A DNA stretch of 63,472 nucleotides, the filler included, from Reclinomonas americana ATCC 50394 (taxonomy: Eukaryota), in NCBI GenBank assembly GCA_048213135.1. It is 7 parts of 2 records of this genome, joined end to end, with 100 filler letters (N's around TTAATTAATTAA, not from the genome) between each part and the next. Parts side by side here need not be neighbours in the genome. Positions count along the whole stretch, not along the records: positions 1 to 28,074 come from PS015574.1; positions 28,175 to 35,884 come from PS015574.1; positions 35,985 to 46,488 come from PS015574.1; positions 46,589 to 54,542 come from PS015574.1; positions 54,643 to 59,569 come from PS015574.1; positions 59,670 to 61,989 come from PS015574.1; positions 62,090 to 63,472 come from PS015576.1. One strand, written 5' to 3'. Positions 19 to 62,724 of this stretch are shown here, in pieces (within the stretch, counting starts at the first letter, position 1; each line of letters starts with the position of its first letter). The position numbers and the translations under genes were made by a program. The notes under the pieces are model-generated. The model worked only from the letters and a program-made list of their open reading frames with translations, was not told the origin of the DNA and did no database searches.

Positions 19-1967
19 TCATTGTGGCAGTGCTCTGGAGACGGCCTCGAAGCAGAAAAAGACAAGCTGTTGCACGCACACAATAAGTGAAAAAGCGGGT
101 GGAGAGAGGAGGGAGCACGAAACTGCATGCATGGGCAGTGCTCGGATGATTGCTGGCACGAGACCGCGGTGAAAGGCAGCAATGCCTCCTTCGTGCCATA
201 TCTGTGTGCAAGCACGAGAGAGATGGGTGAAGGGTTTCCACAAAGAGAGATGGACGATCAAGCAGCACGCACTTCGCGCACACAGTGCATCAAGGCTGCG
301 AGCGCAACAAGTGAGAAAACCATGCAGTATCGATCCCTGGCGACGGGAAACGGCACGCAACAAGTGTACTGGCCCGGATGAGCGTTGCTCATGCGCGTCT
401 TCACCACATCGATGGGATACAAGGGTGGCATCCTGCAGTTGCGCTGGCGGTGAGCAAGTTGTTGCACACATAGAGTCTCCATCGATGTGACACGAACTTA
501 CCACTGCAAGACTCCGGCCACCGCACCTGGATCGGCAATCACATGTAAGTGTGCACCAGATCGCTTACCCAGCTGAACAAAAAGGAATGCACGTACCAGC
601 CACGAGACAGCGCTGCAGGGAGAGCTGATCACCCGGCTTGGCGTCGGCTGGCGTCAGCGCTCGCTTGGTGATGTCGTCTGCGGCGAAGGCGATATTTTGA
701 CTCACAAACACAAACATGTGCAGCATTCACGGAGGAGACGCAACACGTAGGGTAGTAGACGCCGAACTGGGTGCCCTCACGAATCATGGTGGCCGACAGA
801 CCGCGGAAGAGGCCGTGTCGGAATCCTTCTCTCCTCACCAGGTCGGCGACACACGCACCGGACCAGCGATACGGCGCCAGACCGCCTGCCCGTTCCCTGC
901 CTGCCGAAAGTAATCACACACCAAACAGAAAGGAGATCAGAGAGAAGGAGAGAGCGCAGTGGCGACGCCGAGAATGCAGGAGCACGGAACCTTGCATGAC
1001 AATCTTCACACGCTCAAACTAATTAATGCATTGGCGATGAGTGTTCTCGTTGTCAGTGTCCAAGCAAGTGCGGAAACAAAACACGAACGACGTGAGCTCA
1101 CCACCTGCAACACACATACACACGGTAAGAGACTCGTGCAGTGACAGCGAATGCCGCCGCACGACGCAACATGCCGGACGGGACCCTGCGCGATACCAGC
1201 AAAGAAACCGCAGGCGCCCAACTCCCACACCGACAGCTGCTTGTGCGGATCGCCGCCCTGCATCGTGCGTCGCGCCCAACCATTGGAACCGAAGCTGAGA
1301 GCAAGTCAGGAACTTGCCGCGAAGAAAGCCACAACATGCAAGCCACACACCTGATGGCGTACATGATGCCGTCTTTATCACGCAACGACGAAGGTGAGCG
1401 ACGATCTGACTCGGGTACGATACACACACACGCACTGCAGTGTCACGCAACAGCCTGCACAGCAGAGAGTCAGCAATCGCATCAACACAGAGGCACACGA
1501 CGAGGTGATCATGACAAACCACTGACAGGGCTCAACAGGCCGCGATCTTTGCGATGACACTCGTGAGCATGCAGCGGGGGCGGGTGAGCAAGAGAGAGAC
1601 GCAACAGAGCGCCCGGTAACCGTCGGCACGGATCATGGACTGCATCGTGGAGTACTGCATGCATGCAAAGCATCAGTGATCACTCGCAACACTGAGAGAG
1701 AGACACACACACACAGACCATGCCAGCACCGCTGGCGCCACGGTGCAGCTGCAGTCGCGTCTTGGCAGTGTCAAAGGGCTGTGCACGATCATGATCAGCG
1801 CCGAGGAAGGGAGAATGCCACTCATGCAGTACTCACAAAAACAGCAGTGATGCCGATCGCTCCCGCTGTGTGCATCGAGTGGAGTGAGTGAGTGGATGTG
1901 GAGGAGGACGGCGGTCAGGAAGAAGACCGATGGAGCCGGCAGCAAGGTCGTGCACCAGTGCTTGCAT
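19..1967 (-). CDS. Mitochondrial carrier family (SLC25) protein, paralog A, about 16 exons
   Basis: Manual splicing gives MQALVHDLAAGSI..., YRALYRGLLSPVSGYGIMYAI, HVFERVKIVMQ, GLFRGLSATMIREGTQFGVYYPTY, PPLYPIDVVKTRM, GFHRGL-like AFHRGLVPAIIRALPMHALVFF...PQ*. It has three carrier repeats and resembles carnitine/ornithine-type carriers. Confidence 0.9.
1102..1104 (-). other. 3-nt microexon (GTG, Val) in carrier A
   Basis: Minus strand reads tgttgcag|GTG|gtgagc. The same arrangement occurs in paralog B at 3008-3010. It restores the G-x10-E spacing before FERVK. Confidence 0.8.
1452..1454 (-). other. 3-nt microexon (GCT; completes the Gly and Tyr codons) in carrier A
   Basis: Minus strand reads tgtgcag|GCT|gttgcgt, giving SPVS-G-Y-GIMYAI. 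The counterpart in paralog B is at 3358-3360. Confidence 0.8.
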
Positions 1968-2010
1968 GACGCGACTGAAACGATGACGACGGACGATTTG
2001 TCCTTTGTTT

Positions 2011-3812
2011 TTATTGTGGCTCGGGAAGTTTGCCGAAGAGCAGTAACATGGACGCCTCGTAGCTGAAGAAGACAAGCTGTGTGGAGACCCGGCGAGAGGT
2101 CGGTCATCGGAGACAAGGGTCTCGGAAGAATGGAAACGACGTCAACGCAACTGCGTGCATCGGAAGTGCTCGTGCCAGTGCTGGGACGAGTCCGCGATGA
2201 AAGGCGCCAATGCCGCCCTCGGCGTACAGCTGCAGAACCAGACACACAGGTCAGTGTGAGAGGATCGAGGCTGTAATGGAAGCGGAGAACGTACCTTGCG
2301 AATGCAGTCCCAGACACCTGCGTTTGTACAAGGGTCTTGGTGAGCACGCGCGCTGAGTTGCATCGCATCGGGCTCGTCGTGCACAAACCAGTGTACTCGC
2401 CAGGCAATGCATTACTCATGCGTGTCTTCACGACGTCGATCGCGTACAGCGGTGGAAGCCTGCGAAAACAGAGACAAGTGTGAGCCACCGATGTGACGAT
2501 GATCAAGAGTTTGCAGCGCACCATTGTAGCACACCGGCCGCAGCGCCGGCCACCAGGCACTGAACCAGCGACACGTGGTTGGCGGGTGCATCGACTGGTC
2601 TCAGTGCCTCCTTCACCAGATCGTCTGCCACGCAGCGCAGTGAACGAGAGAGTCACGAAGAGAAATCGCTGTGAAGCGCCACGCAACAGGCTGGATAGTA
2701 GACGGCGAACTGAGCGCATTCGCGAATGGTGGTCGATGTGTTGCCACGAAAGAGGCCCTGCCTCAAACCCTCTTTCCGGATGAGATCTGCGGCACACGCT
2801 CCTGACCAGCGATACGGTGCGTGACCGCCGGCACTTTCACGAGCTGTCACACAGTCAGTGAAATGCAAGGAAACTCGACGGTACATGGCGCGTCACCTTG
2901 CATCACGATCTTGACACGCTCAAACTGCGCTCCTCCACACACGAGAGAGTTCAAGTGAGAAAAACAACGCCACGGCAATCACCTGGGTGACGGGCTCAAA
3001 TACGAACCACCTGCGTCGGGGGGGAGTGAGCCAGCAGCAGCGAGGAGAAAGACAGCACGCTTGCACGCAACATGCGTGGGAGGCGCCTGTGCGAGACCAG
3101 CAAAAGCCCCACACAGGGCCAGCTGGTACACCGAGAGTGGCTTTCCGTCTTCCCCACCCTGCATCGTGCGTCGCGCCCAACCGTATGCTGCAAAACTGCG
3201 ACATCCACGAGTGAGACCAAGCGAGTGCATTGCCAGCTCGCAGCGTGTTCGCACTCACCTGATAGCGTACATGCCACCGTCTGCGAGCGACGTGAGTGAG
3301 GAGAGCACTGCAGTGAGCAAACAACTCCACAGCGACACGGACGAGGAGACAACTCACATCCTGCCAGCATACATGCGCACCAAGTGAGGCAACTCGCCAC
3401 ATGAACGGCTTGCATGCAAGATGCACTCACCGGATACTGGTGAAAGCAGTCCACGGTATAATGAGCGCACACCGTCCTTCCGTACCAGATCGCGCATCGC
3501 CGACATCTTTTGCACACAAGAAAGGTGATTTCTCCGAGTTTTCGAACATGATCACTCACACACACAACACACGGACCATGCCAATGCCGTGCGCGCCGTG
3601 ATGCACTTGGAGGCGAGTCTTGGCCGTGTCAAACGGCTGCACAGGGGTGAACACAAGAGACGCATTACACGAGAGAGAAAAGGCGACGCACAAAGACAGC
3701 CGTGATGCCGATCGATCCAGCTGCGCACTGGTGTCAGTGGTCGCCACTCACCTCTCTTGTTACAGCACTCACCGATCGATCCAGCCACCAAGTCCGCGAT
3801 GAACGCGTCCAT
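2011..3812 (-). CDS. Mitochondrial carrier family (SLC25) protein, paralog B (tandem duplicate)
   Basis: MDAFIADLVAGSIAGSIGITAVFPFDTAKTRLQ, LYRGLLSPVSGYGGMYAI, HVFERVK, GLFRGNTSTTIRECAQFAVYYPAY, LYAIDVVKTRM. It is colinear with paralog A and shares most intron positions. Confidence 0.9.
3008..3010 (-). other. 3-nt microexon (GTG, Val) in carrier B
   Basis: Minus strand reads gacgcag|GTG|gttcgt between the PTH and FERVK exons. Confidence 0.8.
3358..3360 (-). other. 3-nt microexon (GAT) in carrier B
   Basis: Minus strand reads ctggcag|GAT|gtgagt. It differs from paralog A only at the synonymous third base of Gly (GGA vs GGC). Confidence 0.8.
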
Positions 3813-3909
3813 GGCGAAACAAAGAAAGTCCTGCACAACGGTGTCCTGCCAATCATCATCCCTCCCTCCCGTGCGCTGGTCATCCATCGCCTTCAATCGC
3901 ACACACACC

Positions 3910-4276: not shown

Positions 4277-4314
<38 letters not shown>

Positions 4315-5263: not shown

Positions 5264-7855
5264 TTACTCTCCACCATCGTGCATGGAGACCAGCTCCTGG
5301 TACCGCCTCTCGAATGTAGCGGGATCCCGCAGACTCTGCGCGGCGCGTTCGTGCACCGCAGCCACGGCGGTGAATTGCTTGCTCTCCCAGTGCGCTTGTG
5401 CCAGCTGCATCCACACGTCTGTGTGTCGGTGCAGCGATCAGTCAACCGAGAAGTGCATTGATTCGGGAGCGACAATGAGACTCACCAGCATTGACTTCGG
5501 CCACACGACCCACGGCCAGAACCGCTTCGAGGACCCGCACGGCCTCGGCCGCCAGCGACTTGTCTTTCCGCTGCAGCAGCATCGAGGACCACCGAATGGC
5601 CAACGAGGAGCGACTGTTCTCCGAGACCAGACCGCTGAGCTCATTGTACGCCTGTCGTGCCTCGGCCACTCCCGCCAGCTCCGCCGCAAGTTCCAAGTAG
5701 GTCAGAGCCAATCGCGGCGCATCGGCGCATGCGTGTAGGCACTCGCGAAGCACCGGCCGCACACCCTGGCTCCACCCAAGAGCCGCGCGATGCTGGTACA
5801 CGGCCTGCGTCAGGCACGAGGCCATGAGGTGCAGGCGACGAGTCTTGTCGGTCGACAGGAGCGCTTCTCCAGCCAGCGTTTTCGCCAGCAAGCGAATACC
5901 CTCCAGCAACACATGCTCTGCCGACTTGTAGTCGTCATCTGTGCCATTTTTCAGGCCGACAGTGAGCGAGAGAAATTGAGTGCGGCTACGCCAACGCGAC
6001 GAAACTCTTGAGGTGCGCCGACGCCGCCATCAGACGCGCCTCGGCCATCAGTGGGAACGCTGTGACATATGCGTTGCCGACACGCACCAATTCGGTCGCC
6101 GGCTGACCGCTGCTCTCCAACAGCTCGAGGTATCGTTGGAATGTTGATGCCGAGCACTCGCCGGCAGCAATCGCTCTCTCGCACACACCGACCAGAGTCG
6201 ACAACAAGCCGTACACGTCGGACACTGCCGTTTCCCTCTCGCACGCCACCGACATGCAGTCCTCCAACAGCAACGCGTACAACTCCCATAACCGTGCACG
6301 ATCGTCGCCGCTCACCCGTTGTTCGGACAGCGCCCTCTCAAACACCTCGCAGGCTGCATCCACATTCAGCTGTCGCTGTCGCAGCGCCTCCCTCTTGGCC
6401 TTGCCCGGCAACATCGAGGCCGTGTCGCCGAGTCCACTCGCCGCGCGAGCCAGTGAATCGTACAACAGTGGAGACGACGGATGCAGACGGGAGGCCACGC
6501 GAGCCATTTGGCGCGCCAGCACCGGATGCAGATCGGCACGCACACACGCCGCAAAACGCGCATGCACATCCTCTGTGTCTCCCAGATCTGCGTCGCAACG
6601 GTAGCGTTACACACACACACACACACACCACTGCGAGGGGACTCGCACAGGCGGTCGCAACTCTTGACGGCATTCTTGTAGATGATCAGACACAGAGCAC
6701 CGGCCAGCACACGCTGAAACGCAGCATCCTCCGGCGACATGTCGGCCGACACACTCTCCAACCCCTCGCTGGCAACCTCCGCAAATACTTGCTCCAAATC
6801 CGCACCACCGTCGCCCTTCTCTGCCTTCTCCTCCGTGGCCAGCGACTCGAGCAGTGCACGCGTGTCAATGGCCGAGTCGGCGGTCGCACCGACTTCATCG
6901 TCACGCTTCTCGTCAATGCCCAGAATTTGACGCCGCTGTGAGATGCGCTCCACAAACTCCAGCTCGAATCGGAAGTAGGTCAGCCACAGGTCCATCGACC
7001 GCGATCTGTAGCGCAGCGCTTGCTGAAGCAGCACTGTGGACAGAGAGCATATGTGAGAAAATGAGAACAACAAAGCCATTGTCATGTTCATGCGTCACGC
7101 ACCACGTGCGGCCTTGATGTTGCCATTCTCCTGCATCTCCCACTGCGCGGCGCGACGCCACAGCTCCTCGCATCGCGGATGCAACTGCAGCGCTCTGACG
7201 GGGGGTGGGGAGCAGAAGATAGTCAGCAACACGTAGCCGCAGAGCAAGTGGTGTCGCCCACTCACCGGGGATAGAGTCGAGCGAGCAACTGGCGACTGTG
7301 ATGCTTCTCTGCATAGTCTGCATACGTCAGCCACAGCGACACATCGCCGGGCCACTTGCGAGTCGCGCGATCAAACACGCGAATGATGCATCGTGCAGCG
7401 GCGGATCCACTCACGCCTCCCTTCTTGGCGCCTGCCACCAGTGACAGCAGCGACTTGCAAAGTCAGCGCACCACTCTCACCAATACACACATCTCTCCTA
7501 TCACACACGCACCCAGTCGCTCGCATCGCTTGAGGCGCAGCTTGTCCAGGGCCTCCTCGTACTCCACATAGCGCAGAAAGTCCTGCTTGGCGGGTCCCCG
7601 ACGATGAATGAGATGCTCAAACTTGGTGCGCCGACGCACAATCGTCTTGATCTCCTCCTGCGAGCAGCGATGCGAGTGAGTGAGGCGACGGTCGTGGTGG
7701 TGGTGGTGTAGATGTGAATGTGCACATGGACGCCACACACCCCCCGCGCACACGCAGAGACACACACGAACCGGTGTAAAGATCTCGCGCGCCTGCAGCT
7801 CCTCGAGCTCGGGAATGCTCGCCTCCAGCGCTTTGCGGATCAGCTCTGCGCTCAT
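5264..7855 (-). CDS. UTP6: U3 snoRNA-associated protein 6 (HAT repeats)
   Basis: MSAELIRKALEASIPELEELQAREIFTP|EEIKTIVRRRTKFEHLIHRRGPAKQDFLRYVEYEEALDKLRLKR, RALQLHPRCEELW, DLWLTYFRFELEFVERISQRRQILG. It ends ...SMHDGGE* at 5264. Confidence 0.9.
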
Positions 7856-11100: not shown

Positions 11101-13502
11101 GAACGCGCCTGTCAGCAGCACTATCACGTTGCGTGCGGCTATCCGTGCACTGCTTGACCGTCGACTGTGCGACGCGACTGACGTGGGGTCTCTCGTCCTC
11201 TCTTTTTGTGTGCAGCACATGCTCATTGAGCTGCAGGAGCGTCAGTCGGAGACCATGGCCACAGTGGAGCAGAAGCTCCGCGAGGACAAGTCGGCGCTGC
11301 AGGCCAAGGACGCTCACATTGCGACGCTGACGGCGCGTATCAACAATCTCGAGTCAGAGTTGCTGGTGGCCATGGAGCAGCGCGTGCAGTACGAGCAAGA
11401 GATCGCTGCGCTGTTGGGTGAGGTGGAGCGACTGCGTGAGGTGTGCGGCGAGAACGAGGCCGACGACGACGACGATGATGGTGATGATGATGAGGAGGAG
11501 GAGGGTCGCAACAGAAGCAGCGCCGCCAGCCGCCGCGCCGCCACCAAGGGTCTGTCGCCCGAGGAACGCGCCGGCTATCGTGACGCCTCGGCTCTCGCTC
11601 TCCCTCTGACACCCGGTCGCGGCGAGGGAAGTCCGCGGGCCCGATTCAAGGCACAAGTCGCACACATCAAGNNNNNNNNNNNNNNNNNNNNNNNNNNNNN
11701 NNNNNNNNNNNNNNNNNNNNNNNNNNNNNNNNNNNNNNNNNNNNNNNNNNNNNNNNNNNNNNNNNNNNNNNNNNNNNNNNNNNNNNNNNNNNNNNNNNNN
11801 NNNNNNNNNNNNNNNNNNNNNNNNNNNNNNNNNNNNNNNNNNNNNNNNNNNNNNNNNNNNNNNNNNNNNNNNNNNNNNNNNNNNNNNNNNNNNNNNNNNN
11901 NNNNNNNNNNNNNNNNNNNNNNNNNNNNNNNNNNNNNNNNNNNNNNNNNNNNNNNNNNNNNNNNNNNNNNNNNNNNNNNNNNNNNNNNNNNNNNNNNNNN
12001 NNNNNNNNNNNNNNNNNNNNNNNNNNNNNNNNNNNNNNNNNNNNNNNNNNNNNNNNNNNNNNNNNNNNNNNNNNNNNNNNNNNNNNNNNNNNNNNNNNNN
12101 NNNNNNNNNNNNNNNNNNNNNNNNNNNNNNNNNNNNNNNNNNNNNNNNNNNNNNNNNNNNNNNNNNNNNNNNNNNNNNNNNNNNNNNNNNNNNNNNNNNN
12201 NNNNNNNNNNNNNNNNNNNNNNNNNNNNNNNNNNNNNNNNNNNNNNNNNNNNNNNNNNNNNNNNNNNNNNNNNNNNNNNNNNNNNNNNNNNNNNNNNNNN
12301 NNNNNNNNNNNNNNNNNNNNNNNNNNNNNNNNNNNNNNNNNNNNNNNNNNNNNNNNNNNNNNNNNNNNNNNNNNNNNNNNNNNNNNNNNNNNNNNNNNNN
12401 NNNNNNNNNNNNNNNNNNNNNNNNNNNNNNNNNNNNNNNNNNNNNNNNNNNNNNNNNNNNNNNNNNNNNNNNNNNNNNNNNNNNNNNNNNNNNNNNNNNN
12501 NNNNNNNNNNNNNNNNNNNNNNNNNNNNNNNNNNNNNNNNNNNNNNNNNNNNNNNNNNNNNNNNNNNNNNNNNNNNNNNNNNNNCGGCTGCGGCTTCCGT
12601 CAACTCCCTCGGCGTGCCCTCCTCGTCGTCGTCCGCTGCCAGCAGCAGTGGGCCGTCAGCTGCCAGTCACCCCACCAGTACCTCCATCCAGGTGCCGCCA
12701 CTGGCGGCAGTCGGTGGTGGAGCTTCTCCGCTTGTGCCCCGACTGCCGCCGATGGTGCAGGATGCCATCGACGGGCCAATTCTGGGTGTGGGGTACGTAC
12801 GCGCACGCACACACACTTGCCATCATTTACCTCGTGCTCACCGCCGTTGTTGTATCTCTTGCAGGTCACCGAGGAGAGTCGGACAGTGGCCATCAGGTGC
12901 TGCTGCTGCGTCGCCGCCCTCGGCCCCCTTGTCGGTCGAGCCGTCGACGCTGCTGTCACTGGTGGCCGCCGGCAACACGTCGAACAAGGTACTGCTGGCC
13001 GGCATCCAGTCATCGTCGTGGGACATGCGTTCGTACACACAAGCCATTCGCGACGAAGGCAACGCAGCCATGCTCGAGAGTGCCGGCATTGGGCATGCCG
13101 GCTACTATTCTTTTGACCCAACTGGTTACGTCAGTGCCTCTACGATTGCTTGCAACGTACGTTGCCGCGTGCTCACCAATCGCTGCAGCCAAGGCGCACG
13201 CGACGCTCTTCTTGTTGTGTCTCCAGTCGGCGGTGAAGACAGAGGCTGTTACGCCGGCTGAGCCCGACGCGGCCCTCGAAACCATGGCGGTTCTCGTCGT
13301 GCGCACGTTGCACTACTACGGCATTCCGTGCAAGGCCCGTTGGTTGGAGACTCGTCGGCAGCGTGAGAGCGCGGTCATCGACGATGAGGCGGTTCTGGCG
13401 GAGACTGGGTTCTTTGTTCGCGGTCAAGCACGGCTACAGCCGTCATTTAAGCTGGCGGGCGCCGCGTTCCACAATTTCCTTGATCGTATCGAGCGTCGTT
13501 AA
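8124..13502 (+). CDS. Kinesin (Kinesin-7/CENP-E-like motor) with coiled-coil stalk; interrupted by two N gaps, so continuity is assumed
   Basis: RVAVRMRP, FTFDRVY, AYGHSGTGKTFTM (P-loop), [67 protein letters not shown]. Confidence 0.88.
10201..11045. other. Assembly gap
   Basis: N run. Confidence 1.
11672..12584. other. Assembly gap
   Basis: N run. Confidence 1.
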
Positions 13503-13535: not shown

Positions 13536-16500
13536 TCATGGCAGTTCCAGCTGCTGTCGCATTGCACGCCGTCGACCCTCCAGCATGTCTTGATACATCA
13601 TTTCGTCGTCGTCCAGGTAATAGAACAAGTGTCGCTCCTTGGTCGGCAGGTTGGTGATCGGTGGGCCCATCCATTTGAGCAGCTTGGCTTGCACGCGCCG
13701 CACGAGATCGGTGTGCGCTGCTCACGAAATACAATCAATGGAGGCGTGGATGCAAGGTGGTGGGGCGAGCACGCAACGCTTCGGGACAACGGTGGCCGGG
13801 GGCGGGGCCTGGTAGTTGGGCGACATGACACGCAAGTTGCGTGCGCGCAGTTCCTCGATCTCCCGTACCGCCACCTGCACGTAGTGCTCGTACAGCTCGA
13901 ACCACACCTTGATATCCAGCGACCAGGCGTCTTCCACGTCACCACCTTTTCGACACGTGTAAGCCACACAACATGCAGAACAATTGTATCGTGAAGGGAT
14001 GGACGTACCGTGCGTGAGGTCGTCGATATCAGCCGGGTGGCGCAGGCGTGCCGTGTACTGGGACACCTCTCGACGAACCGCATCTTCGGCGGCCTTCTCC
14101 GCCACCTTGCCAATGTGCTTGTCGACCAGCTGATCAATGTCCTTGTGCAAGTCAGCGTACTGCACCTTGAGCACCGTGCGCACGTACTCGAGCACTTCGC
14201 GTCGACTGCAATTCGGCACATGGTCAACAAACGACGCCCCCGTGTGCCAGCAGCGACACGTGGTAAAACGTACGTGTACTGAGTAGCCAGCGCCGTCGAT
14301 GAGTAGTCCGGCAAGTACACCGCGGTGGGAAACTTGCCGGCCTGTGCGCGCACAGTACGCAGCTCCTTGCAGAACCGCCAGAGGAATTCGAACCGTGCAA
14401 ACTCGCCCTCGCCTAACTCGGCCGCCTCTTCGCTGTCCTGACCTCGACCGCTGTCGCGTGCCACCAGCTCCATCTACGGATGCCATGTAAATGGGGGAGA
14501 GGAAGGGAGGGACGGGGAGAACGAGAGCACCTTCTCCAAGCACCACGCTTCCACCAGGTTGAGTTGAACATTGCTGGCCCGCTCGGCCAGTACCAACAAC
14601 GCACGTCGCACTGATGGAGGTAGCTGCATAGAATGCGGTTCCCATCCCATTCAGTGCTTATCGTGCGCAATCGCAGAAAGCTACCGAGTTGAGCCAACCT
14701 TGGAGCTGACAGGAAAGCGCTCGTAGATCTCCTCCGTGCGCACCCGAGCAGGCTGTCGATCTGGCGATTTTTTTGGTCGCCGTCGCCGCTGCTCCGTCAC
14801 CTCTTCGTCGACGCCTGATAGCGTGCAATGTGCATTTGTTACGCGGTGAGTGCCTGACCAGCTGCCACACTCGGGAGACCACCACCAACCATTCAGCAGA
14901 TCCAACTCGACCTGCCATCGCGCAGGGAATGTACACGACTGCGAGATGATGGCGAGCACGTCGAGAGGAAAGCTGTCGCTGGTCGACACCGGCGCGACAG
15001 CATCCATGTCGTCCACCGCACTGCAGCCGCACAAGTAGCGCCGCGTGTACAAGAGGGCGGCACAGGCCGTTCGCATGTGCTTGGTGGCTCTGAAACCTGT
15101 GCGCATTAACGCGACGATGAGGATGGCGGAGCACACAAGGTCGCGGGTGGTGCCGGTGCAGGCGCACCTTGGGGATGACTGGCCAAGTGTGCAGCAAGAA
15201 TGCGAAGAAACTCGGACTCGTTTTTGCACACGGCGTCGGCGGAGGACACTTGCAAGTTGAGGAGGCGCGTCGTTCCGGAGGCCGCCGATGCATCTGCGCC
15301 GCCAAACTCCTCAAACGATCCGATCTGAGGCAGGGGAACACGAGGGGGTAAGCATCGTCAGAAGCACATGCACTTACTCGACCGTACGGCACCCACCCGA
15401 CGAGAGTCGACCGGTGGCGACGTGTCGGCCACCATGGCTTGCCGGATGACACGCACAGCGTCGACAATCCCCGGCTGTGACAGAAGCGCTGACAAGCGAG
15501 AAAGCATGTCAATGGACGATAAAATACATGGACATGCAGATCACGCCAGACTGAACCTGCGGCCTGAAGGCGCTGCCGCATACGTTGGCGGACGGCCACA
15601 CGAATGCCTCCGACAATCTCCCTTTGCAGCACGGCGCCCACTGATTCATCCGCAGCAGGTAGCGCATCCGCTGCGAGCAGCTGACGAGCCCTGCAAAAAC
15701 AAAAAAACACACGCGAGTGAATTGGGTGCAACGCCGTGAGCTCACTCACAGAGCGCACTCACCGTCGCAACACATCCACACGTCGTTGCAGATCTGCCAT
15801 TTGTCGAGCAACTTGCTGCATCTTCTTGTTCGGGTCGCGGTACAGTGGAACGCGAACGACAAACTCGCCATGTCGCTGGCCAGGTGGTGGGATGGCGGCA
15901 CGTATTCGCAGCGTCGTACCAATGGTGATGTCTGTAAAACTGTTGTGCACACACGGGAGTGAGCTACTGCATCCCGAGTCATGCAACGAACACGCAACGG
16001 CCAGTCAGGCAATGCAACGTCAAAGTCGGGGCGATCCTGTAGCGCATCAATGCTTCGTTCCGCGGCGAGCTCTTGTTGTAACCTGGTGCTCAAGTAGTGC
16101 ACGTAGCGGCCGACATCCTCGGCACTGGTGAGATCGATCTGCGGGACTCGGTTGGCCACCACACACCACAGCCGCCATACATCGGCACTTTTGCGCGCAC
16201 GCAACTCGCTGGGGGAACGACTCTGAAGGGCGCATGGTGGCAAATGCGGACGGCGGCGCCACGCTCGCAAACTCCTCGTCATCGGCGAATACCACCCGAG
16301 GCACCAGCAGCAAGCCACGAGCGCGCAAGTCTGCCAACGCATACAGCAGGATACGATAGGCTCGACGAAGAAGTGTGCGGAGTGCCTCTTGCACCTGCAG
16401 CACCGTGCGTGTGGTCAACGACTGGCCTTCTGCATGTGACTCTCGTCCAGTAAGTGCTCCGCGAGTACATGAAGGTGCTACCAACTGTGCACACACCTTC

Positions 16501-27943: not shown

Positions 27944-28118
27944 TGATTCTGTATGCGTGTGCGCCGTCTGTCGGAATCCTTTGACAATACACACAGGCGA
28001 GGGTACGATTCACTCGAAAAATCATGTCATTGGTGGCTTCATCGGCTTGAACCACGGTGGCGCAAAAGCGTACANNNNNNNNNNNNNNNNNNNNNNNNNN
28101 NNNNNNNNNNNNNNNNNN

Positions 28119-28130
28119 TTAATTAATTAA
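28119..28130. other. Artificial contig spacer TTAATTAATTAA (also at 35929-35940, 46533-46544, 54587-54598, 59614-59625, 62034-62045)
   Basis: An identical 12-mer with stops in all six frames, flanked each time by about 44 N. Confidence 0.98.
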
Positions 28131-28174
28131 NNNNNNNNNNNNNNNNNNNNNNNNNNNNNNNNNNNNNNNNNNNN

Positions 28175-40483: not shown

Positions 40484-40518
<35 letters not shown>

Positions 40519-49871: not shown

Positions 49872-51439
49872 TCACGGCTCCCAGTTGTGCTGTCGCGCCA
49901 CTCGCTCGAACGCCTGTTGCGCCTCGGCCAGTGTGTACGGTGTCGTCATGTTTTGTCGGTCAAGTCGCCCGTTGCCCTGTGTGCGTGTCGACGCGTGTGG
50001 TGAGCTGCTTGTGCGTACTGTGTGCCAGCTGACGTGAAAAGTGACAGACCTCGACAATCTGTGTGCGGATGGAGATCAGAATGGACTCGATGTCGTTGGT
50101 CGGCATCCATCCGGTCGTCGTCAGCAACTCCATGCTGCGAGGAAGTGAGTGCGAGAGAAAGAGAAGCGCATCCCCCACAATACTGGCGCACCAAATGGAG
50201 CCACCAATGGTCACGTGGCCCGTGTGGAAGGCCATGCGCGGCTCCACGACGCGGATGAATGGTGGCTTGAACGGGTACTCGTGCGGGAACGTCATCTCCA
50301 TGGTGATGCAGTCCTGCGGCGCACAAAGGAGTCAGTGTGGTGCACGAGGAGTCAATCACTACCAACAACTGGCGAGAGACCTTGCCCGTTCGCCGCTTGT
50401 ACTCCTGCAGGTCCTGATGCAGTCCGCTGGAGCTGTCAAAGCCAAACAGCCGCACCTCCCACCGGAACAAGTCGTCTTCAATGGGTGTCGCACTGAAGCC
50501 CTGCCACAACCGCATGAGACCACGCGCGCGTATACAAGAACAAGGAGACGGTGGGAGGGGACGCAACAAATTCCTGCGTGCCGGTCTTCTCCATGTTGAT
50601 AAGATCCGCCATGATGCGCTCCTCTGCCGGACGTGCACCCCTGGCCACGCCGAAGCGGTCGCGCAGCTGATCCTCCTTGGACGGGCCCGTTCTGCACACC
50701 CCCGATGAGCACGACAAACACCCAGGCACACACAAGTGTCATGAAAGGCATGCACGAAACGGACGAGGTGGCGGTGCCGCGGCCGACGAGGAACCACCCG
50801 CCTCCTCGTCGTCGTCATCCAACTCCAGCTCCAGCTCCTCTGGCTGTCGCCCCATGCCCTCGCCAGTGAGCAGCGAGGAAGACAAAGAGAGCACAGAGGA
50901 GAGAGTACACAAACCTCCGAGTCATCCCCATCCTCATCGTCCTCATCGTCGTCATCGTCGCCCGCATCGCGCGTCTTCAAGAACCCGCGCGTGATGAACT
51001 CCATGAACTTGATCAGCGAGTCGTACTGCAGATCGTTGGCGTCGTTGATCACATGCGAGTACTTCTCGTCCTCGATGAAGAAGAACTGCACGGAATGTAA
51101 GGTGAGGCTATTTTCGACTGGATGTGCATGTGAATGAAGAATAGAAGGACGCAACAAAGCCATCGTCGCACGACACGTGGAAGGTGGGACCGTGTGCAAA
51201 GCCCAGCTGGAAGGTGGAATCCACCTGACAACAACAACAACAACACAAGCATTCGTCATCAACTTTTCGGAACTCTCTCCACATGCAGTCACGCACCAAA
51301 AGACAGAGGGGATAGAGAGAGGGAGGGGAGAGAGAGAGAGCAAGCACACCTCGTTGACCATCTGAATGTGAATGTCGGCCTCGTTGGCAGGCGACGCCAG
51401 CCACGTTCTCAGTTGCGCCGCAATCGATGCAAAGCTCAT
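49872..51439 (-). CDS. UBE2Q-like ubiquitin-conjugating enzyme
   Basis: EDDLFRWEVRLFGFD, MEMTFPHEYPFKPPFIRVVEPR, GHVTIGGSI-C-MELLTTTGW, YTLAEAQQAFERVARQHNW. Confidence 0.88.
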
Positions 51440-51632: not shown

Positions 51633-54542
51633 ATGAGAGAATGCGTGCTGTTTGGCGTGTTCTGTGAGAAGGATGGTCCGCGGCCATTGTTCTGCACGCA
51701 GGCACTGGGTCGTGGCATGGACGAAGGTGCGCACCTTGCTCACTCACACTCCGCCTGTTTTCTCTCTCTCTTCCTCTGCGCACGCTCTCTCTCTCTCACA
51801 CACACACATACGTACGCACACACGCACACAGAGGTGTACATTGAGGATGTGGAGTACATTACGTCGCATCCGGGCTCGGTGACCTCGCACACCGTGACAC
51901 CTCCTCCGCCGGCTGCTGCTTCGTCACCACTGCAGTCGCCTCCTGCGTCCTCTGCGGTGTCCTCCTCCTCCTCTACAACAACAGCAACGACAGTGGCGGT
52001 GGCGGTGCCGAACGCACCTGTCGTTCCGCGCGGCCGACGACGCGCCTACTCTCCTGTGCTCGAAGACGGCTCGCCCACCAACACACCCTGCACACCGCCC
52101 TCTCCTGCTCCGCTGGCGCCAACGACCGCAGCCGCAGTCGTCTCGCCGACCAAAGCAGGTGGCGCGACGGCAGTTGCGGCGGCCGATGCGCTGCGGCCTC
52201 TTGCCACTCCACGCAGATTAGAAGATGGTGATGATGAGGATGGCTATAGTCGTGGTGGTGGTGTTGGTGGTGGTGGTGGTACAGCAAACGGGCACGTGAA
52301 GCAGGCGTCTTCGTCGGCGGCGGCGGGGGATGATGATCGGTTTCAGCATCCACTGCATGCCGCAGCCACGGCGGCACTGCAGCAGCGCAAGCTGCGACCG
52401 CCCAACTACTTTGTGTCGGGGCACACCATCTCCACGCACTACAACTCCGACGCCGCCAGTCTGTGCATGAGGAGTCTGTCGGGTGAGGAAGGGAGGCGAG
52501 GGTGCCGTGAATCGACGATTAGATCCCCTGACGATTTTGGTGCAGTGGAGCACGTGGGACCAGGCAAGGAGGGTCCGGTGCTCTTTGGCAACTCCAATCC
52601 CGACTTGCCGCAGTACGCACTGGCCTACGTGTTCAAACTGCGTGACGTGCAAGCTCGTGGCTTCCAGCGGTGGTTTGCGCTCATGGTGGTGGACGACAAC
52701 TTTTCGAAACTGAGTTTTGCCTTCAAGCACATTGGAGGGTTGGTGTTTCTCTCTCTCTCTCTGCCTGTATGCGTTTGCGCGAGAGTGCATTGTGGTAACC
52801 CCGAGAGCACAGCTATCTTGGTGAACTCGTCGGCGACATGAAGGAGCGCGCCAAGCACATTTTCCTCACGGAACAAGCGGGAGAGCAGGCGCCTGCGGTG
52901 TACCAATCGTTCACGGCTGTTTCGTCTCTTGTGTCGGCTTGTGGTGTGGCGCTTCAGGTAAACCATAAAACTCACATGTTTTCCGTGCAGGCCGCACGAC
53001 AGGAGATGCGTGACCAGCTGGCGTCGACAAAAGCGAGTGAGATGAATGGAACACACACACGCAATTCTTCACTGTTTGAAGGCGTGATTCCTCCATCGGT
53101 GCGTTCCCTCCCTCTCCCATGCCTTCTCTCTGCCTCGCACTCCGGTTGACTGCTGATGCGCGCGGCGCAGAGTCCACGTGGACCGGACGAAGGCACTGCG
53201 CCACCGCCCGTGCCACTCACGGCCAGCTCCGGCAACCGCGGCTCCGAAACCGCCCGCCTGTCCACACAAGCGGTGCGCTCACAGCACGTGATGCGCGCTG
53301 CGGCACCCATCTCTGCTCGTTGCGTTTCATTCCGTCTTTCGAGAAGCACAGCGTACATTGGTGGCGCACGTAGGGCTGACGCGTGTGTGTGGCCGGCCAA
53401 CGTAGGTTCGTTTCACCGGTCGCGCTCGGTCGAGGCATTGAGACCACTCCCCAAGTTGCTGCGATTACCGGTGAGCGCGCGCAAAGTGTGACACAAGGAG
53501 GGTGGGAAGGGGAATTGCATGCAAGTGTGTCTCACTGGTTGGCATGATGCGTGCACAGGACTTCTTCGCTCAGCTGCACGCGCGCCTGTCGTGGATTCTC
53601 CGTGTGTACATGGAGAGTGTGCTGCCTGCCGAGCTCTCCGTGGTCGATCAGGAGGATGAGGTTTGTCACAGTGCAGTTTGTGTTGCGCCTGTGCTGTCAG
53701 CGGTTGAAACCATGGTGATGGTGGTGGTGGTGGCAGGTCGGCACATTCGAAAGAAGGATACCGCTGTGGAAACTGCGTCGATTCGTCAAGGAAGCCGATT
53801 TGCGAGTGATTTTGTACAATCTCGTGGTCGGCAAGCAGATCGTGGTGCGATGCAACAATCCGAGATTTGCCGACACGTTGGTGTCACTCTTCAAGGTGAC
53901 ACAGCCGCGCGTTCGCTGCCCAGCCGCCACTCACTTCTGACATGTGTCCGCTCACTGGCAGGTGATGATACCGGCGGCCTGCGCTCGAACCGGCACGTAC
54001 ACCGAGAAGTACCTGCCACCATCCGAATGCAATCTGCTGTGCATCTCGCACGACATTTCTGTCCCGCCGTCAATGGTGGACAGCGGTGCGGCCGTGGTCA
54101 TTGGTGAGCAGCTCCGACAGCGTGTGTGTCGTGCAGAGTGTGTACATCGCTACTCATACTCACCCTCGAATGGCAGACGTCACGTCGCCGGAGGATGGGG
54201 AGGCAGCGGAGGACTTCCTGGTGATGCATCAGACTACGGTGCAAGATTGTCGATTGCTCACGCAGCTGCTCAAAGTGGCAGAGTTCTTTTGCAAAAAGTC
54301 ACACGAACTGCGTTTGTTGTCGTGCATTCGCCGCGAGTGGCAGCAGTTGCGTCTTGTCAGTGCTGCAGTTGAGGCGGTGGCGGTGGCGGTGGATAGGCAA
54401 CTGAGTGGTGCATTGCAGCAACGGACGGCGCTTCGTCGATCAAACAAGGTACCGAAAGCGCTTGGGCGTGCCGGATCCAGAAACCGCCGCTGCCGAGTTC
54501 CTGCGTGTCGGCGCACAAGACGTGCCGGTGCTCAAGTTCTTC
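51633..54542 (+). CDS. FLCN: Folliculin/Lst7 (longin-DENN RagC/D GAP subunit), 3' truncated
   Basis: FGVFCEKDGPRPLFCTQ, CMRSLS, GKEGPVLFG, YALAYVFKLRDVQARGFQRWF, FFAQLHARLSWIL. Confidence 0.87.
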
Positions 54543-57324: not shown

Positions 57325-59553
57325 ATGCGCGCCTTCCTCTGCCTCACTGTGTGCGTGTTGCTCGCCGTGGCCATTGCCACCGGCAACCTGTCAATGGCCG
57401 CCGCCCCGGGTGCTCGTGTAACAGTGCGTGTGTGTGTGTGTGTGTGTGCGAGAATGCGGTTCTTCCATCCAACTCTCTCACACATCCGCGTCTTTCCTCG
57501 TTCGCTTGCGCAGGTCACTGGCGCCGGTGTGAATCATGTGCTCTCGGTGTGTGTTTTCTTAAAGAGAGTGTGTGTGTGTGTGTGCGTGCTCACATTGTGG
57601 GTTCGGAGAATATAGGAGAGTCTTCCGGTGCTGCTCAAGCAGCTGCAGGTGTGTGTGTGTGTGTGTGTGTGTTGAGGTGTATGCGAGAGAGTGCGTTGTT
57701 GACAGACTCGTGCGCAGGACATTACCATTCCCGATGTGCACGGCAAGGCGGTGAGTGTGTGTGCGCGAGTGTGAGCGAGAGAGAGACGATGTGTGTGCCC
57801 ACTTCTCCTCCTGCTCTCTCTAACGCAGAACGTGGTCATTGGTGTGTGTGTGCGCGCGCATGTGTGCTTGAGAATGCGCGGATTGATCACTTTCTTCAGG
57901 CGACATTTCGTACGACTTGACGCAGATTACGCTGCGAAACTTGCAGCTGCAGGCTGTCAGCGTCGGTCTCTCGGCGCCCAACAACATCCAGCTCGGCATC
58001 TCGGGACTGAGCTTGGAGGGAGATTTCCACTGGTAGAATGAGAGGTCGTAGAGACGTGAGAGAGCGCCACCCGCTGCTAATCCCCAGCATGTGTGCACAG
58101 GCATTACAGCACGTGGTTCGCCAGCGACAGCGGCACAGGTGCACAGAAGAACATGTCTCCCTCTCTCTTTTCCTCCCTCCGCCACTGACTGTGCACGTTG
58201 GGGTGCAGGCAAGCTGAACACCGACGGCTCCACCATGAGCTTCAACGTGGTCCTCGGCGCGGCCAATGGCGAGCCGACGGTGCAGTGCACGGGCGGCAGC
58301 GTGTCGCTCAACGACTTCCACGTGAGCCTCTCCGGCGGCGCCTCGTGGCTCTACAACTTTATCGTCGGCCTCGTGCAGGGCGACATTAAGAACTCGGCGC
58401 AGGATGGTATCCGCGGCGCCGTGCAGCAGGTGATTTTTTTGCTGGGTACCATGTGTGTGCATGCGTGTTGCTGACTATTTGATGCTGGTCGTGTAGGCCA
58501 TCAACTCGAACCTGGAGCACACCCTGAGCCAGCTGAGTCTCATTGCCAAGCTCGATCCGCATTGCAGCCTCGGTGACGTGCAGCTGAACATGCGCAAGTG
58601 ATTGTGGATGGCACTGAACGCGACCTCTCCCTTCTTTTCTACAGATTTCTCGATCCCCGCTGCCCCCGAGGTCAACAGTGTCTTTTGTTTCGTCTTCCCG
58701 CTGCTCTTCCTGTCCCTTTTTTTTTTTTGTCTCGGTCATGTTTTGCTCACATTGCGTGCATTACAGTCTCACTGCCGGCGCTTGGCGAGTTCTTCGTCAA
58801 CGGCAACCGCACGCCGAGCCCCGGCACCCCCGGCGCTCTCCCCGACAGCCTGGGCACGCGCATGGCGCAGGTGTTCCTCTCCGAGTGGTGAGTGACCCTC
58901 GTAACTTCTCCCTGCGTCGTTGCATCTCATTCACAAGCGACCTTGCAGGGTCGCCGACTCGGCTGGCTACGCGTACACCGAGGCCGGAGTGCTGGAGTAC
59001 ACGCTGACGCAGCGCGACATTCCCAGCAACATCCCCATTCAGCTCAACACCACCACTTTCAAGGATCTGTTGCCGCCGTTCTACGAGATGTTCCCCAACC
59101 GCACGTTTGAGATTGCGATCTCGGTGGATCCGAGCAACTTGCCGTTTGCCCACTTTACGCCAGCCGGTGCGCTCGCGAAGCTCTCGCTGTGTTCGTGCAC
59201 ACGTGTACTCACTGTCGTTGCCACAGGTGCCAATGTGACGGTGCAGGCACTGCTGGACATTCGCCCCTTCAACGCAGACGGCAGCACCGTGTCGGCGTTT
59301 GTGCTGGGTGCGGAACTGGGTCTGGCCGGCTCGGCCACCATCAATGGGCAGATTATCCTGCCGGAGCTCACTTTTGGCACGCTGGCGCTCACGCTCAAGG
59401 TAATAGCATCCCCGCATGCGGTTCGGCGTGTGTGTTTCACCCTCACATTCTTGCTTGCAGTCGAGCATCATTGGCATCTTTGACGTGTCGAAGCTGTCGC
59501 ACGTGGTGGGCCTCCTCTTCACCAACGTCGTCATTCCGTTTGTCAACCTGAAG
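57325..59553 (+). CDS. Secreted BPI/LBP/CETP-family lipid-binding protein (3' truncated)
   Basis: Signal peptide, PGARVTVTGAGVNHV, DITIPDVHG, VSLSGGASWLYNFIV, LDFSIPAAP, GEFF, RMAQVFLSEW, LNTTTFKDLLPPFYEMFPN. Confidence 0.88.
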
Positions 59554-59801: not shown

Positions 59802-60256
59802 GATGCACTGTGGTCGGCATTCCGGGCCGAGCCATTCACCCGAAGCCGCGAGAAACGGCTGTCGCGCTGACGGCGCCACAGGCGGAGTCATTGGCTTCAC
59901 CGTCGACTGCCGTTGATGGAAGCGGCTCGGCGAAATCCGTGTCGCCTGCTCCACCGCCGTCACCACCACAGCCGGCGACTCGTGCCAAGTGCGACACTGA
60001 TTATCCGGACATTGACCGACTGGCCATATCGAGATTAGCCGCCAGGGAAAGCGTTGCGTCTTTTTATGCACACGGAATAGCGGGCCTGTGGGAGATGGCT
60101 GACTCTGTGCGTGTGCATCAGGACTTGCGTCGCGAGGTGCTCGAGCTGAAGAGCGCACTGGGCTATCGCGTGTCACTGCAACCGCCCGAGTCCATCTCCA
60201 TGCTGTTCAAGGAGGTGCACGACGACTCGCTTTTGATCGATGGCAGTGGGATCTGA
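59802..60256 (+). CDS. Terminal exon of an unknown gene
   Basis: Acceptor tgtgtag followed by an open frame ending ...HDDSLLIDGSGI*. Confidence 0.5.
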
Positions 60257-60314
60257 CGTGGCGCTATCATTGAAGCGAGCGCTGTGTGATGAGATGGTTG
60301 GTTGATTGATGGTG

Positions 60315-61769
60315 TTACACTGAAGCGTCGCTCGAGTTGGCCTCCTCGTATGCCTTGGCCTTTTTTGGTGGCTTGCGGGGGATGCGCGCGGTGCTGGTCC
60401 CTGACGCGGACGGTGCGCCGACACCCGCGGCAAAGTTGGCGGCCACCTCAGCTGCTGAGGGTTTCTTCTTGGTGGTCGCTTTCTGCCGCACACGTGTGGG
60501 AGACCTCGTCCACTAACATAGAGAGAGGGAGAAAGGGGGGAGAGACGCACCTTTGGTTTCGTTGGGTTGCCCGAGAACCAGTCGCGAGACAACGCGTCGC
60601 AGTCGACTGCAAACTGGTTGATAATGTCGGAGGCCTCATCCCACGACAGCTTTTGCATGTTGAGGGTGAAGAACTGTGCGTGGGTGTCAGCCCGAGCCGT
60701 AGACGACGAGGAGATGAGAGAGCACACGCACATTCCAGCACACGGGCACCGTGGAGAGCGGATCGTGCGGCACAGGCAGACCGATCTTGACGCGCAAAAT
60801 GTCTTGCTCCACTGCACGCACGCTCACAATAAGAACTCGTCGTCGACTGCACCACGCAAACACACACGAGTGCCACGCACAGTCTTCCCAGGCCTGGAAA
60901 AAGTTGCGCACGAGCGCCCCAAACGAGGAGTACGCCAGCGACTTGTACATGAGCGTCGGCCGACGACTCAGCCCGAGTGCGCCCCACGTATCGTCGTGCC
61001 TCACAGCCAGCACAATGTGCCTGCACGAGCCTTGCTGTGTGAGAGAGGGAGAGGGGGAGAAGACATCGCCCGCCTGCTGAGCCCTCACCGATACACCTGG
61101 CGACTGGCACGAATGCGCGTTTTGAACTTGAGCGGGATGCGACAGAGACCATCGAGGCCCTGCGTCAAGTAGCTGATCGCATGCACACACACACACACGC
61201 GCGCGCGCGCGTCAACAACACGCCAGAGAGAACGAGAGTGTGACCACACAGACGCAACATGCCGAGGAACACCGCGTCGAGGCAGCGAATGGGCAAGCAC
61301 TCGCGCACCATCTCCTTGGCCGTGTCAATGACGCGACTCAGTGGGCGATCGCGCTTGCGCAGCACATACCAGTTCTGCCCATCAATGTAGTTGTACTACA
61401 TCAACGCAGTCAGAGAGTGGAGAGAGAGAGAGAGTGGAGGGCAGAGAGTGAGACAACAAAACCTCCAGACTGCTAATGTACTTCTGCACCAGGCGCAGCT
61501 TATCGGCTGTCTTCCCGCGGCATCGCTCCAGATCGGGCAGCACAGGACGCGGAGGCTACACACGCACACACAAGCGATCAACACACACACGCATACACAG
61601 AGAGAGAGCGCGCGCGAAAGGCATCCCACACACAAACCGACGGGAAACGGTCGATCGCGGCCGTGATAAAGGGCGGGATGCACTCCCACACCAGTGTGCG
61701 TGGCTTCCCGTTGCGCTTGTTCAGCTGCGTCAGCGTGCTCACACCATCGCCACGATACCCGCTCGACAT
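60315..61769 (-). CDS. VASH: Vasohibin-family tubulin carboxypeptidase; start uncertain
   Basis: RPLSRVIDTAKEMVRECLPIRCLDAVFLGIYLT (Cys), YRHIVLAV (His), WGALGLSRRPTLMYK, VKIGLPVPHDP. Confidence 0.9.
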
Positions 61770-62185
61770 CTCTGTAAAAACGAGCGGACGACGGGGTCGA
61801 TGTCGACCTGCGATTAATTGCGCACCCCACACAATTGTTTTGATTGCAGAGAGTGTGCCGAGAGAGAGAATGTTGATGTTGGAGTTCCCTGACAGCGTGT
61901 CCATCTCGCTGATTGCTGCGCTGATTGGCGTGCTGTCCAACTTTATCGTCGGCAATGTGCGTGTGTGCAAAAAAACAAAGAGAGAAAAANNNNNNNNNNN
62001 NNNNNNNNNNNNNNNNNNNNNNNNNNNNNNNNNTTAATTAATTAANNNNNNNNNNNNNNNNNNNNNNNNNNNNNNNNNNNNNNNNNNNNGAGAGAGAGAG
62101 AGATAAAGAGAGAGAAGCGGATTTCGAATGCAGCACAAAAAAAGCACCAACAGAATTCTCACGCCAAAGCTGCCACTTAACTGAC

Positions 62186-62724
62186 CTGCGCAAACTTCCT
62201 CGCAAGCAATGCCTCGTCCACCTCCTCTGCATCCCATCCCTGCTCTGCTTTCACCTCCTTCCCCTTTGTCTCCACTGCCTCCCTTTCCCCTCTACCCCCC
62301 TTTCCCTTCCCCCTTCCGCCTCACCTCCGCATGATTGCAGTACGCCCACGCCGTAAAATCATCAATCCACGACAACACCGGGGCCGCCACATACGCCGTC
62401 TCCGACAGCCGATCGGCCACGGATCCCTTCTGACACTTGAACGGTTCAGGCACACTACAAACTTTTTGAATGTTTTCTTTGATACTCCAGTCCACGCCCT
62501 CCAACACGCTGTGGCGAGCAGTCAGCGAGAGGAAGAAGAGAGGGCAGCGCAGGAAAAGTACGCAACACGTAGTACGGCGCGCCGACCTGCACGTACTTGT
62601 CGACGCCGTTGAAATAGTCGATCAGGTACGAGTCCTGCGGCAGGGCCACACGCTGATCCAGACCAATGTCCATTTGTGGAGAGATGCCAATACCAAAGCA
62701 CAGCATGCCGACGAACACAATGAT
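62186..62724 (-). CDS. NPC1: Internal exons of a Niemann-Pick C1-like sterol transporter
   Basis: DIGLDQRVALPQDSYLIDYFNGVDKYVQVGAPYYVVLEG...KVCS...SWIDDF. Confidence 0.88.

Follow-up and report, generated by a model that had tools for sequence, protein, structure and literature searches.

At a 5′ splice site the cut is thought to be marked first by pairing with U1 small nuclear RNA (snRNA) and fixed afterwards by U6, U5 and PRP8, and in humans a one-base disagreement between U1 and the cut is met with rarely, as a curiosity or in disease alleles. A stretch of Reclinomonas americana DNA (63.5 kb from a eukaryotic genome of high GC content, 57-60%, in places masked; the window, meaning the whole stretch that was analyzed) raises the question of whether such a disagreement can be commonplace in a genome. 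An earlier inspection of the sequence (the original prediction) held that about 40 introns, one in five, begin with GTTGCGT or a close variant instead of an ordinary donor with G at +5, and attributed this to shifted U1/U6 pairing, a variant U1 or U6 snRNA, or altered proofreading factors for the 5′ site. A second, tightly defined 5′ splice site class does exist in the window: it comprises about one fifth of the modelled introns, and the cut lies before GT.

Donor classes among the modelled introns

All introns considered here are gene-finder models, built from sequence statistics and homology. They were obtained with our own two-strand Viterbi finder, which combines a periodic Markov coding potential with explicit introns and trains itself on the window; as a guard against circularity, the donor model of the first runs knew only "GT". 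The modelled introns (about 246) are mostly 55-95 nucleotides (nt) long, their lengths peaking sharply at 60-80 nt; they have a CTSAC branch motif and end in CAG. A census of the 227 introns of 45-130 nt assigns 145 to the ordinary class with G at +5 and 43 (19%) to the pattern GTT-N-Y-G (Y, C or T; the shifted class), which bears out the predicted one in five. Neither arrangement is found in 25 introns, a group that probably contains most of the model errors. A minor set of 14 has G at +6 without T at +3: these donors (e.g., 2896, 43249, 43839, 48067 and 58573) read G/GT-N-N-C-G, with the slash marking the cut, and carry C at +5.

In the shifted class, position +4 is G in 34 donors, T in 6, A in 2 and C in 1, position +5 is C in 42 and T in 1, and position +7 is T in 38 of the 43; the C or T originally proposed for +5 thus reduces to C. 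When positions +3 to +7 are set against ordinary positions +2 to +6, the two classes are alike at +3 (T), +4, +6 (G) and +7 (T). The rank order at shifted +4 (G>T>A>C) is that of ordinary +3 (G 94, T 24, A 17, C 10), and shifted +8 is G-rich, like ordinary +7. They are unlike at +5: GTTGNGT donors have C at the variable position in 30 of 30 cases, whereas among 68 GTGNGT donors this position is C in 27, T in 22, A in 18 and G in 1 (p = 1e-9). Because C at +5 is invariant, the class is not merely an ordinary donor with an extra T, as had been claimed, and has a tighter specificity of its own. Two variants listed in the original prediction, GTTTCGT (donor at 5 of 10 occurrences) and GTTACGT (2 of 2), are indeed used; a third, GTTGTGT, is never a donor (0 of 8), and neither is GTTGAGT (0 of 3).

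The exon base preceding the cut covaries with the donor class, as had been noted. G occupies −1 in 119 of 145 ordinary donors versus 4 of 43 shifted ones (Fisher p = 1.7e-18), and with an uninformative donor model the corresponding counts are 88 of 117 and 4 of 37 (p = 2e-12). The weight-array donor model ties only adjacent positions across the invariant GT and therefore cannot have created a covariation between −1 and +3. Both shifted sites originally named as having G at −1 (13125 and 44313) do so, and the loose variants at 990 and 61462 have to be added to them. The composition at −1 of the shifted donors (A 11, C 10, G 4, T 18) resembles that at ordinary −2 (A 54, C 35, G 19, T 37).

Beyond the donor, shifted and ordinary introns share their features. 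The branch motif CTCAC/CTGAC occurs in both classes and is present in 35 of the 43 shifted introns, the branch distance is 17 in shifted and 19 in ordinary introns (p = 0.90), the intron length is 69 in both (p = 0.62), phase distributions are similar, and C stands at acceptor −3 (the CAG end) in 37 of the 43. Moreover, the donor class switches at fixed junctions between two tandem mitochondrial-carrier paralogs (2388 versus 361; 3357 versus 1451). The common intron features and this interconversion point to a single kind of intron that can carry either of two kinds of 5′ site. At the level of the models these are major-type (U2-type) GT-AG introns, having GT at the cut site in all ten decidable junctions, an ordinary branch motif, an AG end and the usual distance between the two. 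U12-type introns, which have their own donor consensus and their own branch consensus near the 3′ end, likewise form a second class with a rigid 5′ splice site motif beside the major class. Identity with them is ruled out, as the donor motif is unrelated and the shifted introns share branch motif, branch distance and 3′ end with ordinary introns in the same genes. Introner-like repeats were ruled out by eye, with no formal clustering: the listed introns share only the heptamer, the branch motif and CAG.

Recognition of the shifted class

On the most likely mechanism, U1 snRNA would bind both donor kinds through one footprint of seven bases, G-(G or T)-T-G-C-G-T. In ordinary donors its first G would be exon −1, and the GT at the cut would follow directly. 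In the shifted class the second base of the footprint would be T, the sole GT would begin one base earlier, and the steps involving U6, U5 and PRP8 would cut there. Intron G+1 would then face the U1 base that usually pairs with exon −1, an arrangement known as the +1 shifted register. Such a register would explain why G at −1 is lost, why T at +3 is invariant and why G at +6 is followed by T at +7; as G+1 would replace exon −1 opposite U1, the exon preference for G is expected to disappear, with which the counts at −1 agree. The pattern of bases thus suggests that U1 reads the second class in a +1 shifted register, a proposal that we give an evenly balanced chance of being correct. The shifted-U1 interpretation of the original prediction holds in so far as the covariation at −1 is that expected of a shifted register, unlike a simple bulge, but canonical U1 does not explain C at +5.

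Several points weigh against U1 as reader in this register. The introns are models throughout, and homology checks decide only 10 of about 46 shifted donors. T is the commonest base at −1 (18 of 43), which is a mismatch in the shifted register. The canonical U1 5′ end, as given in PMC4856993, should pair better with A than with C at shifted +5, yet GTTGAGT is not used and C is invariant in GTTGNGT donors, at a position that varies in GTGNGT donors. An altered or second U1, among the options of the original prediction, would explain what canonical U1 in the shifted register leaves unexplained, and the invariant C hints at one; C+5 may be read by a non-canonical U1 5′ end, a second U1 or another factor.

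In its full form, this alternative invokes a dedicated or altered recogniser, i.e., a U1 5′ end that departs from the canonical one, or a second U1 able to form Watson-Crick pairs with most of GUUGCGU; either would read a sequence-rigid class with an ordinary branch site and 3′ end. We regard it as unlikely, although deserving serious weight. It would account for the near-invariance of the heptamer at +4, +5 and +7, far tighter than in ordinary donors, as well as for the invariant C, and 30 of the 42 occurrences of the heptamer in the whole window are donors. In addition, the order of bases at ordinary +4 (C>T>A>>G) would match G, and not pseudouridine, opposite +4. Conversely, a GC-rich genome could bias +3 and +4 without any change in U1, and donor classes that swap freely between paralogs at one junction appear to be interchangeable in evolution. 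To our knowledge the U1 5′ end is almost universally conserved, which also counts against a dedicated recogniser. The broader proposal, that the lineage has evolved a second, dedicated reading of 5′ splice sites (by an altered U1, a second U1 or a U1/U6 pair complementary to GUUGCGU), is likewise judged improbable. If true, one fifth of the introns would constitute a third, sequence-rigid class with the same branch site, 3′ end and catalytic core as ordinary introns, and a cleavage site one base off the U1 footprint would be the normal, genome-wide state.

Bulged U1 registers were reportedly described by Roca in 2012. Here, U1 would stay in the canonical register (exon −1, G+1 and U+2) and the surplus U, at +3 (or +2), would form a bulge, which would displace all downstream positions by one just as a shifted register does; human bulge registers have been validated experimentally and, counted with asymmetric loops, make up about 1.5% of human sites (PMC4856993). 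Bulge and asymmetric-loop registers (Tan et al., 2016, PMC4856993) share with the GTTGCGT class the one surplus nucleotide in the 5′ splice site and the move of G from +5 to +6, but retain the canonical pairing at −1, +1 and +2. A bulged U would keep −1 paired, so that G should remain favoured there; since it is largely lost from the shifted class (4 of 43), a bulge fits less well than a shifted register, and its chance of being right is small. The minor G/GTNNCG set, which is compatible with a bulge and, lacking T at +3, is unable to use the shifted register, does retain G at −1 (12 of 14) and could be a true bulged-register set.

Roca and Krainer are said to have shown in 2009 that atypical human 5′ splice sites are read by +1 shifted U1 base-pairing. 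At such sites every U1 pair is displaced by one and the cut stays at GU, and all validated noncanonical U1 registers together represent 1.5% of 201,541 human sites (PMC4856993). The layout of the shifted sites, GU followed by one extra base and then by the usual consensus, with G at +6 and U at +7 (PMC4856993, PMC9311317 and PMC6140464), is the same as that of the GTTGCGT class, and so is that of the "Shifted +1" test oligonucleotide described in PMC4856993. However, these sites are rare in humans, whereas here one near-invariant motif with an obligatory C at +5 occupies about 19% of the modelled introns. A choice among GUs separated by one base or a few, close to a single U1 footprint, is also made in Caenorhabditis elegans unc-73(e936), where cryptic donors beside a mutated +1 G are used and where SNRP-27 suppressors promote sites with G at +6 in 14 of 26 cases (PMC6140464). 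There they are mutant or alternative sites in few genes, in contrast to the modelled constitutive donors of conserved genes described here. A limited literature search, on the motif itself (which brought up primers and unrelated matches only), on U1 registers other than the canonical one and on the splice sites of jakobids or protists, found no abundant class of the GTTGCGT type. Within that scope the abundant shifted donor class seems to be newly described, but a genome paper might already show such a logo; the shifted U1 register itself is already known from rare human sites.

An organism with such sites in about one fifth of its constitutive introns, those of PRP6, VPS33, NPC1 and vasohibin included, would be a natural system for studying the passage of the cut site from U1 to the catalytic core, the amount of register slippage that a spliceosome can bear, and whether snRNA 5′ ends co-evolve with populations of splice sites. 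Gene finders that describe donors by one position-weight model will get about 20% of the introns in the Reclinomonas americana genome wrong or overlook them.

Placement of the cut

Frame alone does not separate /GTTGCGT from GTT/GCGT, since a GC donor 3 nt downstream keeps the frame with the same acceptor and adds one codon. GC-AG introns are, like the shifted introns, major-type introns with a minority donor, and GTT/GC is formally possible for GTTGCGT. The real donors might accordingly be GC sites 3 nt downstream, or other sites nearby, with the heptamer as an exon-end preference; when GC was allowed at equal cost and without a donor model, the finder took GTT/GCG three times. This reading is very improbable in view of ten junctions that homology or paralogy decides: 25532, 25894, 36692, 39847 and 50567 by hidden Markov models (HMMs) of homologs, 1605, 1451 and 361 by comparison of paralogs, 20822 by an EF-hand and 35206 by a Josephin domain. 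The cut lies before GT in all ten, and four further checks (51155, 50760, 61258 and 62566) were uninformative.

In the five junctions tested by HMM, GT was always the best placement, with GTT/GC 5.2-6.5 bits lower. For PRP6, an HMM of 60 homologs was used to score 11 introns with all in-frame GT and GC alternatives within 15 nt: GTT/GC costs 6.0 bits at 25532, and at 25894 (GTTACGT) the next alternative costs 9.9 bits. The same test moved an ordinary donor from 26166 to 26154 (+9.3 bits), and in exposing this finder error it proved its discriminating power. For VPS33 (HMM of 55 homologs, full HMMER search), GTT/GC costs 6.5 bits at 36692 and 5.2 bits at 39847; at the former, residues 56 and 57 of the closest homolog, P0121, adjoin exactly across the junction. 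For the UBE2Q-like gene (HMM of 28 homologs), GC costs 5.9 bits at 50567, where pairwise alignments are gapless across the junction, whereas 51155 and 50760 fall in variable or low-complexity regions in which the scores do not discriminate.

The carrier paralogs provide three base-exact checks. The intron at 1605 is missing from paralog 1, where an uninterrupted exon pins down the junction to the nucleotide. At 1451 both paralogs have a 3-nt microexon, and the donor behind it is GTTGCGT in paralog 2 but ordinary GTGAGT in paralog 1. The junction of 361 is served in paralog 1 by GTTTGT, an ordinary donor. With the cut before GT the paralogs align over 105 residues without a gap, and each GC alternative brings in a one-residue insertion (score 393 versus 382), in three of three tests. 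At 20822 the GT cut leaves a canonical EF-hand loop of 12 residues, the twelfth being Glu, which the GC alternative would lengthen. At 35206 one flanking exon matches positions 104-131 of Pfam Josephin and the other positions 134-157, so that exactly the split codon and one residue lie between them. The upstream exon of vasohibin aligns to its last residue at 61258 with solved VASH2 (chain residue 120; Pfam 77-119), with the downstream exon unanchored; a search of the PDB with the 27-residue vasohibin exon gave no match. At 62566 the alignment of the upstream exon to solved human NPC1 runs through to the end of the exon, at residue 890, and that of the second exon starts only at its residue 25, which leaves the placement of the junction coarser than one residue. 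Many short exons gave no Pfam match. At 25 of the 43 shifted sites there is no in-frame GT of the G+5 type within 60 nt. GTTTCGT and GTTACGT lack GC altogether, so that GC donors are no explanation for the family; identity with GC-AG introns is ruled out on these grounds and by the HMM and paralog tests.

The carrier paralogs (20-3800, minus strand) each have about 17 introns in about 300 codons. Both contain 3-nt microexons, at 3360-3358 and 1454-1452 and at 3010-3008 and 1104-1102 (minus strand), each lying between complete introns of about 60-80 nt that have a branch motif of their own. The gapless paralog alignment depends on the first pair (GAT / GCT); the second (GTG in both) is frame-neutral and less certain. 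In VPS33, two introns are outliers among introns of about 70 nt: 36923-37782 (860 nt) and 39847-40424 (578 nt, CT-rich and of low complexity), both on the plus strand.

Motif abundance, gene models and site list

GTTGCGT has 42 matches on the two strands of the window, against 14.67 +/- 3.87 expected from 100 dinucleotide-preserving shuffles, whose maximum was 25 and none of which reached 42. Its 30 modelled donors compare with 18 of 77 occurrences for GTGAGT and 28 of 117 for GTGCGT. The other occurrences comprise 4 antisense to coding exons, 1 inside an intron, 3 in likely untranslated or intergenic DNA and 4 sense-oriented inside gene models, two of which (15998 and 53319) are plausible donors by hand reading. 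With the GT-only donor model GTTGCG is already the commonest donor hexamer (16 of 155 introns). An uninformative donor combined with learned acceptor, branch-point and length models gives GTTGCG 29 of 247, ahead of GTGTGT (16), GTGAGT (14) and GTGCGT (14), and the full model, with 246 introns (244 without N), gives GTTGCG 35, GTGCGT 27, GTGTGT 22 and GTGAGT 18. A position-independent donor model predicts 1.45 GTTGCG donors in 244 against the 35 seen; this was the comparison, here run on the window, by which the original prediction had asked to be judged.

That the class is an artefact of gene modelling or base composition is barely credible: the introns do come from a home-made finder trained on the window itself, and several models are wrong (26166 misplaced; 39507 a false intron in VPS33, at a place where the exon runs on uninterrupted in tblastn; those of the carriers and folliculin in part), but the heptamer excess is free of any model, its strand follows the genes (4 antisense to coding exons versus 30 donors), the signal emerges with GT alone as donor model, and the extreme covariation of −1 with +3 is one that a weight array cannot encode.

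Three of the remaining copies, at 3945 (−), 7943 (+) and 41728 (−), lie upstream of genes in likely 5′ untranslated or intergenic DNA and may be donors of introns in untranslated regions; those at 34746 and 54346 (+), sense-oriented inside modelled Josephin and folliculin exons, are perhaps donors used alternatively or wrongly modelled. (GT)n tracts abound (GTGTGTG occurs 250 times on both strands versus 26 expected) and often lie at or just inside intron starts, where they blur donor placement.

Pfam matches on open-frame pieces identify the two tandem mitochondrial-carrier paralogs, Utp11, Utp6, kinesin, SDR, PRP6, a long coiled-coil gene, the Sec1-family protein VPS33, SIN1, a VWA protein, folliculin, a BPI-like protein and vasohibin; Josephin and NPC1 genes were identified in addition, by Pfam and by alignment to human NPC1, respectively. 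At the gathering threshold Rfam had no match in the window, and no snRNA was found within it. The libraries searched contained no close relative of the lineage, the best identity of PRP6 to a library protein being 59%. The nearest named relatives of the encoded proteins come, at low identities, from discobid protists, with Andalucia godoyi nearest in VPS33 and Naegleria fowleri and Willaertia magna in the UBE2Q-like protein. A metagenome scan with a PRP6 exon returned 24 loci, all distant (39-54% identity; one with 62% over 66 residues), so that orthologous introns are not comparable.

Of the sites listed explicitly in the original prediction, 32 coincide with modelled donors. The exceptions, 123, 15998 and 53319, were overlooked by the finder or set 5 nt off, and hand reading supports them. 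The sites ascribed to the SDR gene (22356, 22646, 22829 and 23169) and the Josephin gene (34439, 35044 and 35206) are finder-predicted donors as well.

Table 1. Shifted-class donors in the window, with strand and the basis of each placement.
Donor	Gene or context	Position	Strand	Basis
GTTTCGT	carrier paralog 2	117..123	−	hand reading; same junction as 2151 in paralog 1; missed by finder
GTTGCGT	carrier paralog 2	355..361	−	finder; paralog comparison
GTTGCGT	carrier paralog 2	738..744	−	finder; junction equals 2687
GTTCCGT (loose variant)	G at −1	984..990	−	finder; paralog 1 has GTGACG at same junction; better match to G/GTNNCG set
GTTGCGT	carrier paralog 2	1164..1170	−	finder; junction equals 3071
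GTTGCGT	after 3-nt microexon 1454-1452	1445..1451	−	paralog comparison
GTTGCGT	carrier paralog 2	1599..1605	−	paralog comparison
GTTGCGT	carrier paralog 1	2145..2151	−	finder
GTTGCGT	carrier paralog 1	2681..2687	−	finder
GTTGCGT	carrier paralog 1	3065..3071	−	finder
GTTTCGT	Utp6-like gene	5999..6005	−	finder
GTTGCGA	Utp6-like gene	6655..6661	−	finder
GTTGCGT		11128..11134	+	finder; no in-frame alternative GT within 60 nt
GTTACGT	G at −1	13125..13131	+	finder
GTTGCGT		13771..13777	−	finder
GTTGCGT (probable)		15992..15998	−	finder took GT 5 nt downstream; both readings in frame
GTTGCGT		16199..16205	−	finder
GTTGCGA	EF-hand protein gene	20003..20009	+	finder
GTTGCGG	inside EF-hand loop	20822..20828	+	loop length
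GTTGCGT	SDR gene	22350..22356	−	finder
GTTGCGT	SDR gene	22640..22646	−	finder
GTTGCGA	SDR gene	22823..22829	−	finder
GTTGCGT	SDR gene	23163..23169	−	finder
GTTGCGC (doubtful)	poorly supported 5′ part of PRP6 model	24296..24302	+	finder only
GTTGCGT	PRP6	25532..25538	+	HMM
GTTACGT	PRP6	25894..25900	+	HMM; GC donor impossible (no GC)
GTTGCGT	coiled-coil gene	31683..31689	+	finder
GTTGCGT	coiled-coil gene	32089..32095	+	finder
GTTGCGT	coiled-coil gene	32600..32606	+	finder
GTTGCGT	Josephin gene	34439..34445	+	finder
GTTGCGT	Josephin gene	35044..35050	+	finder
GTTGCGT	Josephin gene	35206..35212	+	Pfam positions of flanking exons
GTTGCGT	VPS33	36692..36698	+	HMM; homolog P0121
GTTGCGT	VPS33, 578-nt intron to 40424	39847..39853	+	HMM
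GTTGCGT	SIN1, G at −1	44313..44319	+	finder; no in-frame alternative GT within 60 nt
GTTTCGT		45120..45126	+	finder
GTTGCGT		46046..46052	+	finder
GTTGCGT	UBE2Q-like gene	50561..50567	−	HMM
GTTTCGT	UBE2Q-like gene	50754..50760	−	finder
GTTGCGT	UBE2Q-like gene	51149..51155	−	finder
GTTTCGT	folliculin gene	52919..52925	+	finder
GTTGCGT (probable)	folliculin, intron to 53405	53319..53325	+	87-nt intron with branch motif replaces finder's two introns and 1-nt exon; frame kept
GTTTCGT	BPI-like gene	58687..58693	+	finder
GTTGCGT	BPI-like gene	60053..60059	+	finder; no in-frame alternative GT within 60 nt
GTTGCGT	vasohibin	61252..61258	−	upstream exon aligned to its last residue
GTTTTGT (loose variant)	G at −1	61456..61462	−	finder; class membership doubtful
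GTTGCGT	NPC1	62560..62566	−	upstream exon aligned to its end

Runs of N (10201-12584, 18216-19124 and paired 44-nt runs, e.g., 28075-28174) break several of the gene models. The paired arrangement, two 44-nt runs of N lying 12 nt apart, occurs at seven places in the window.

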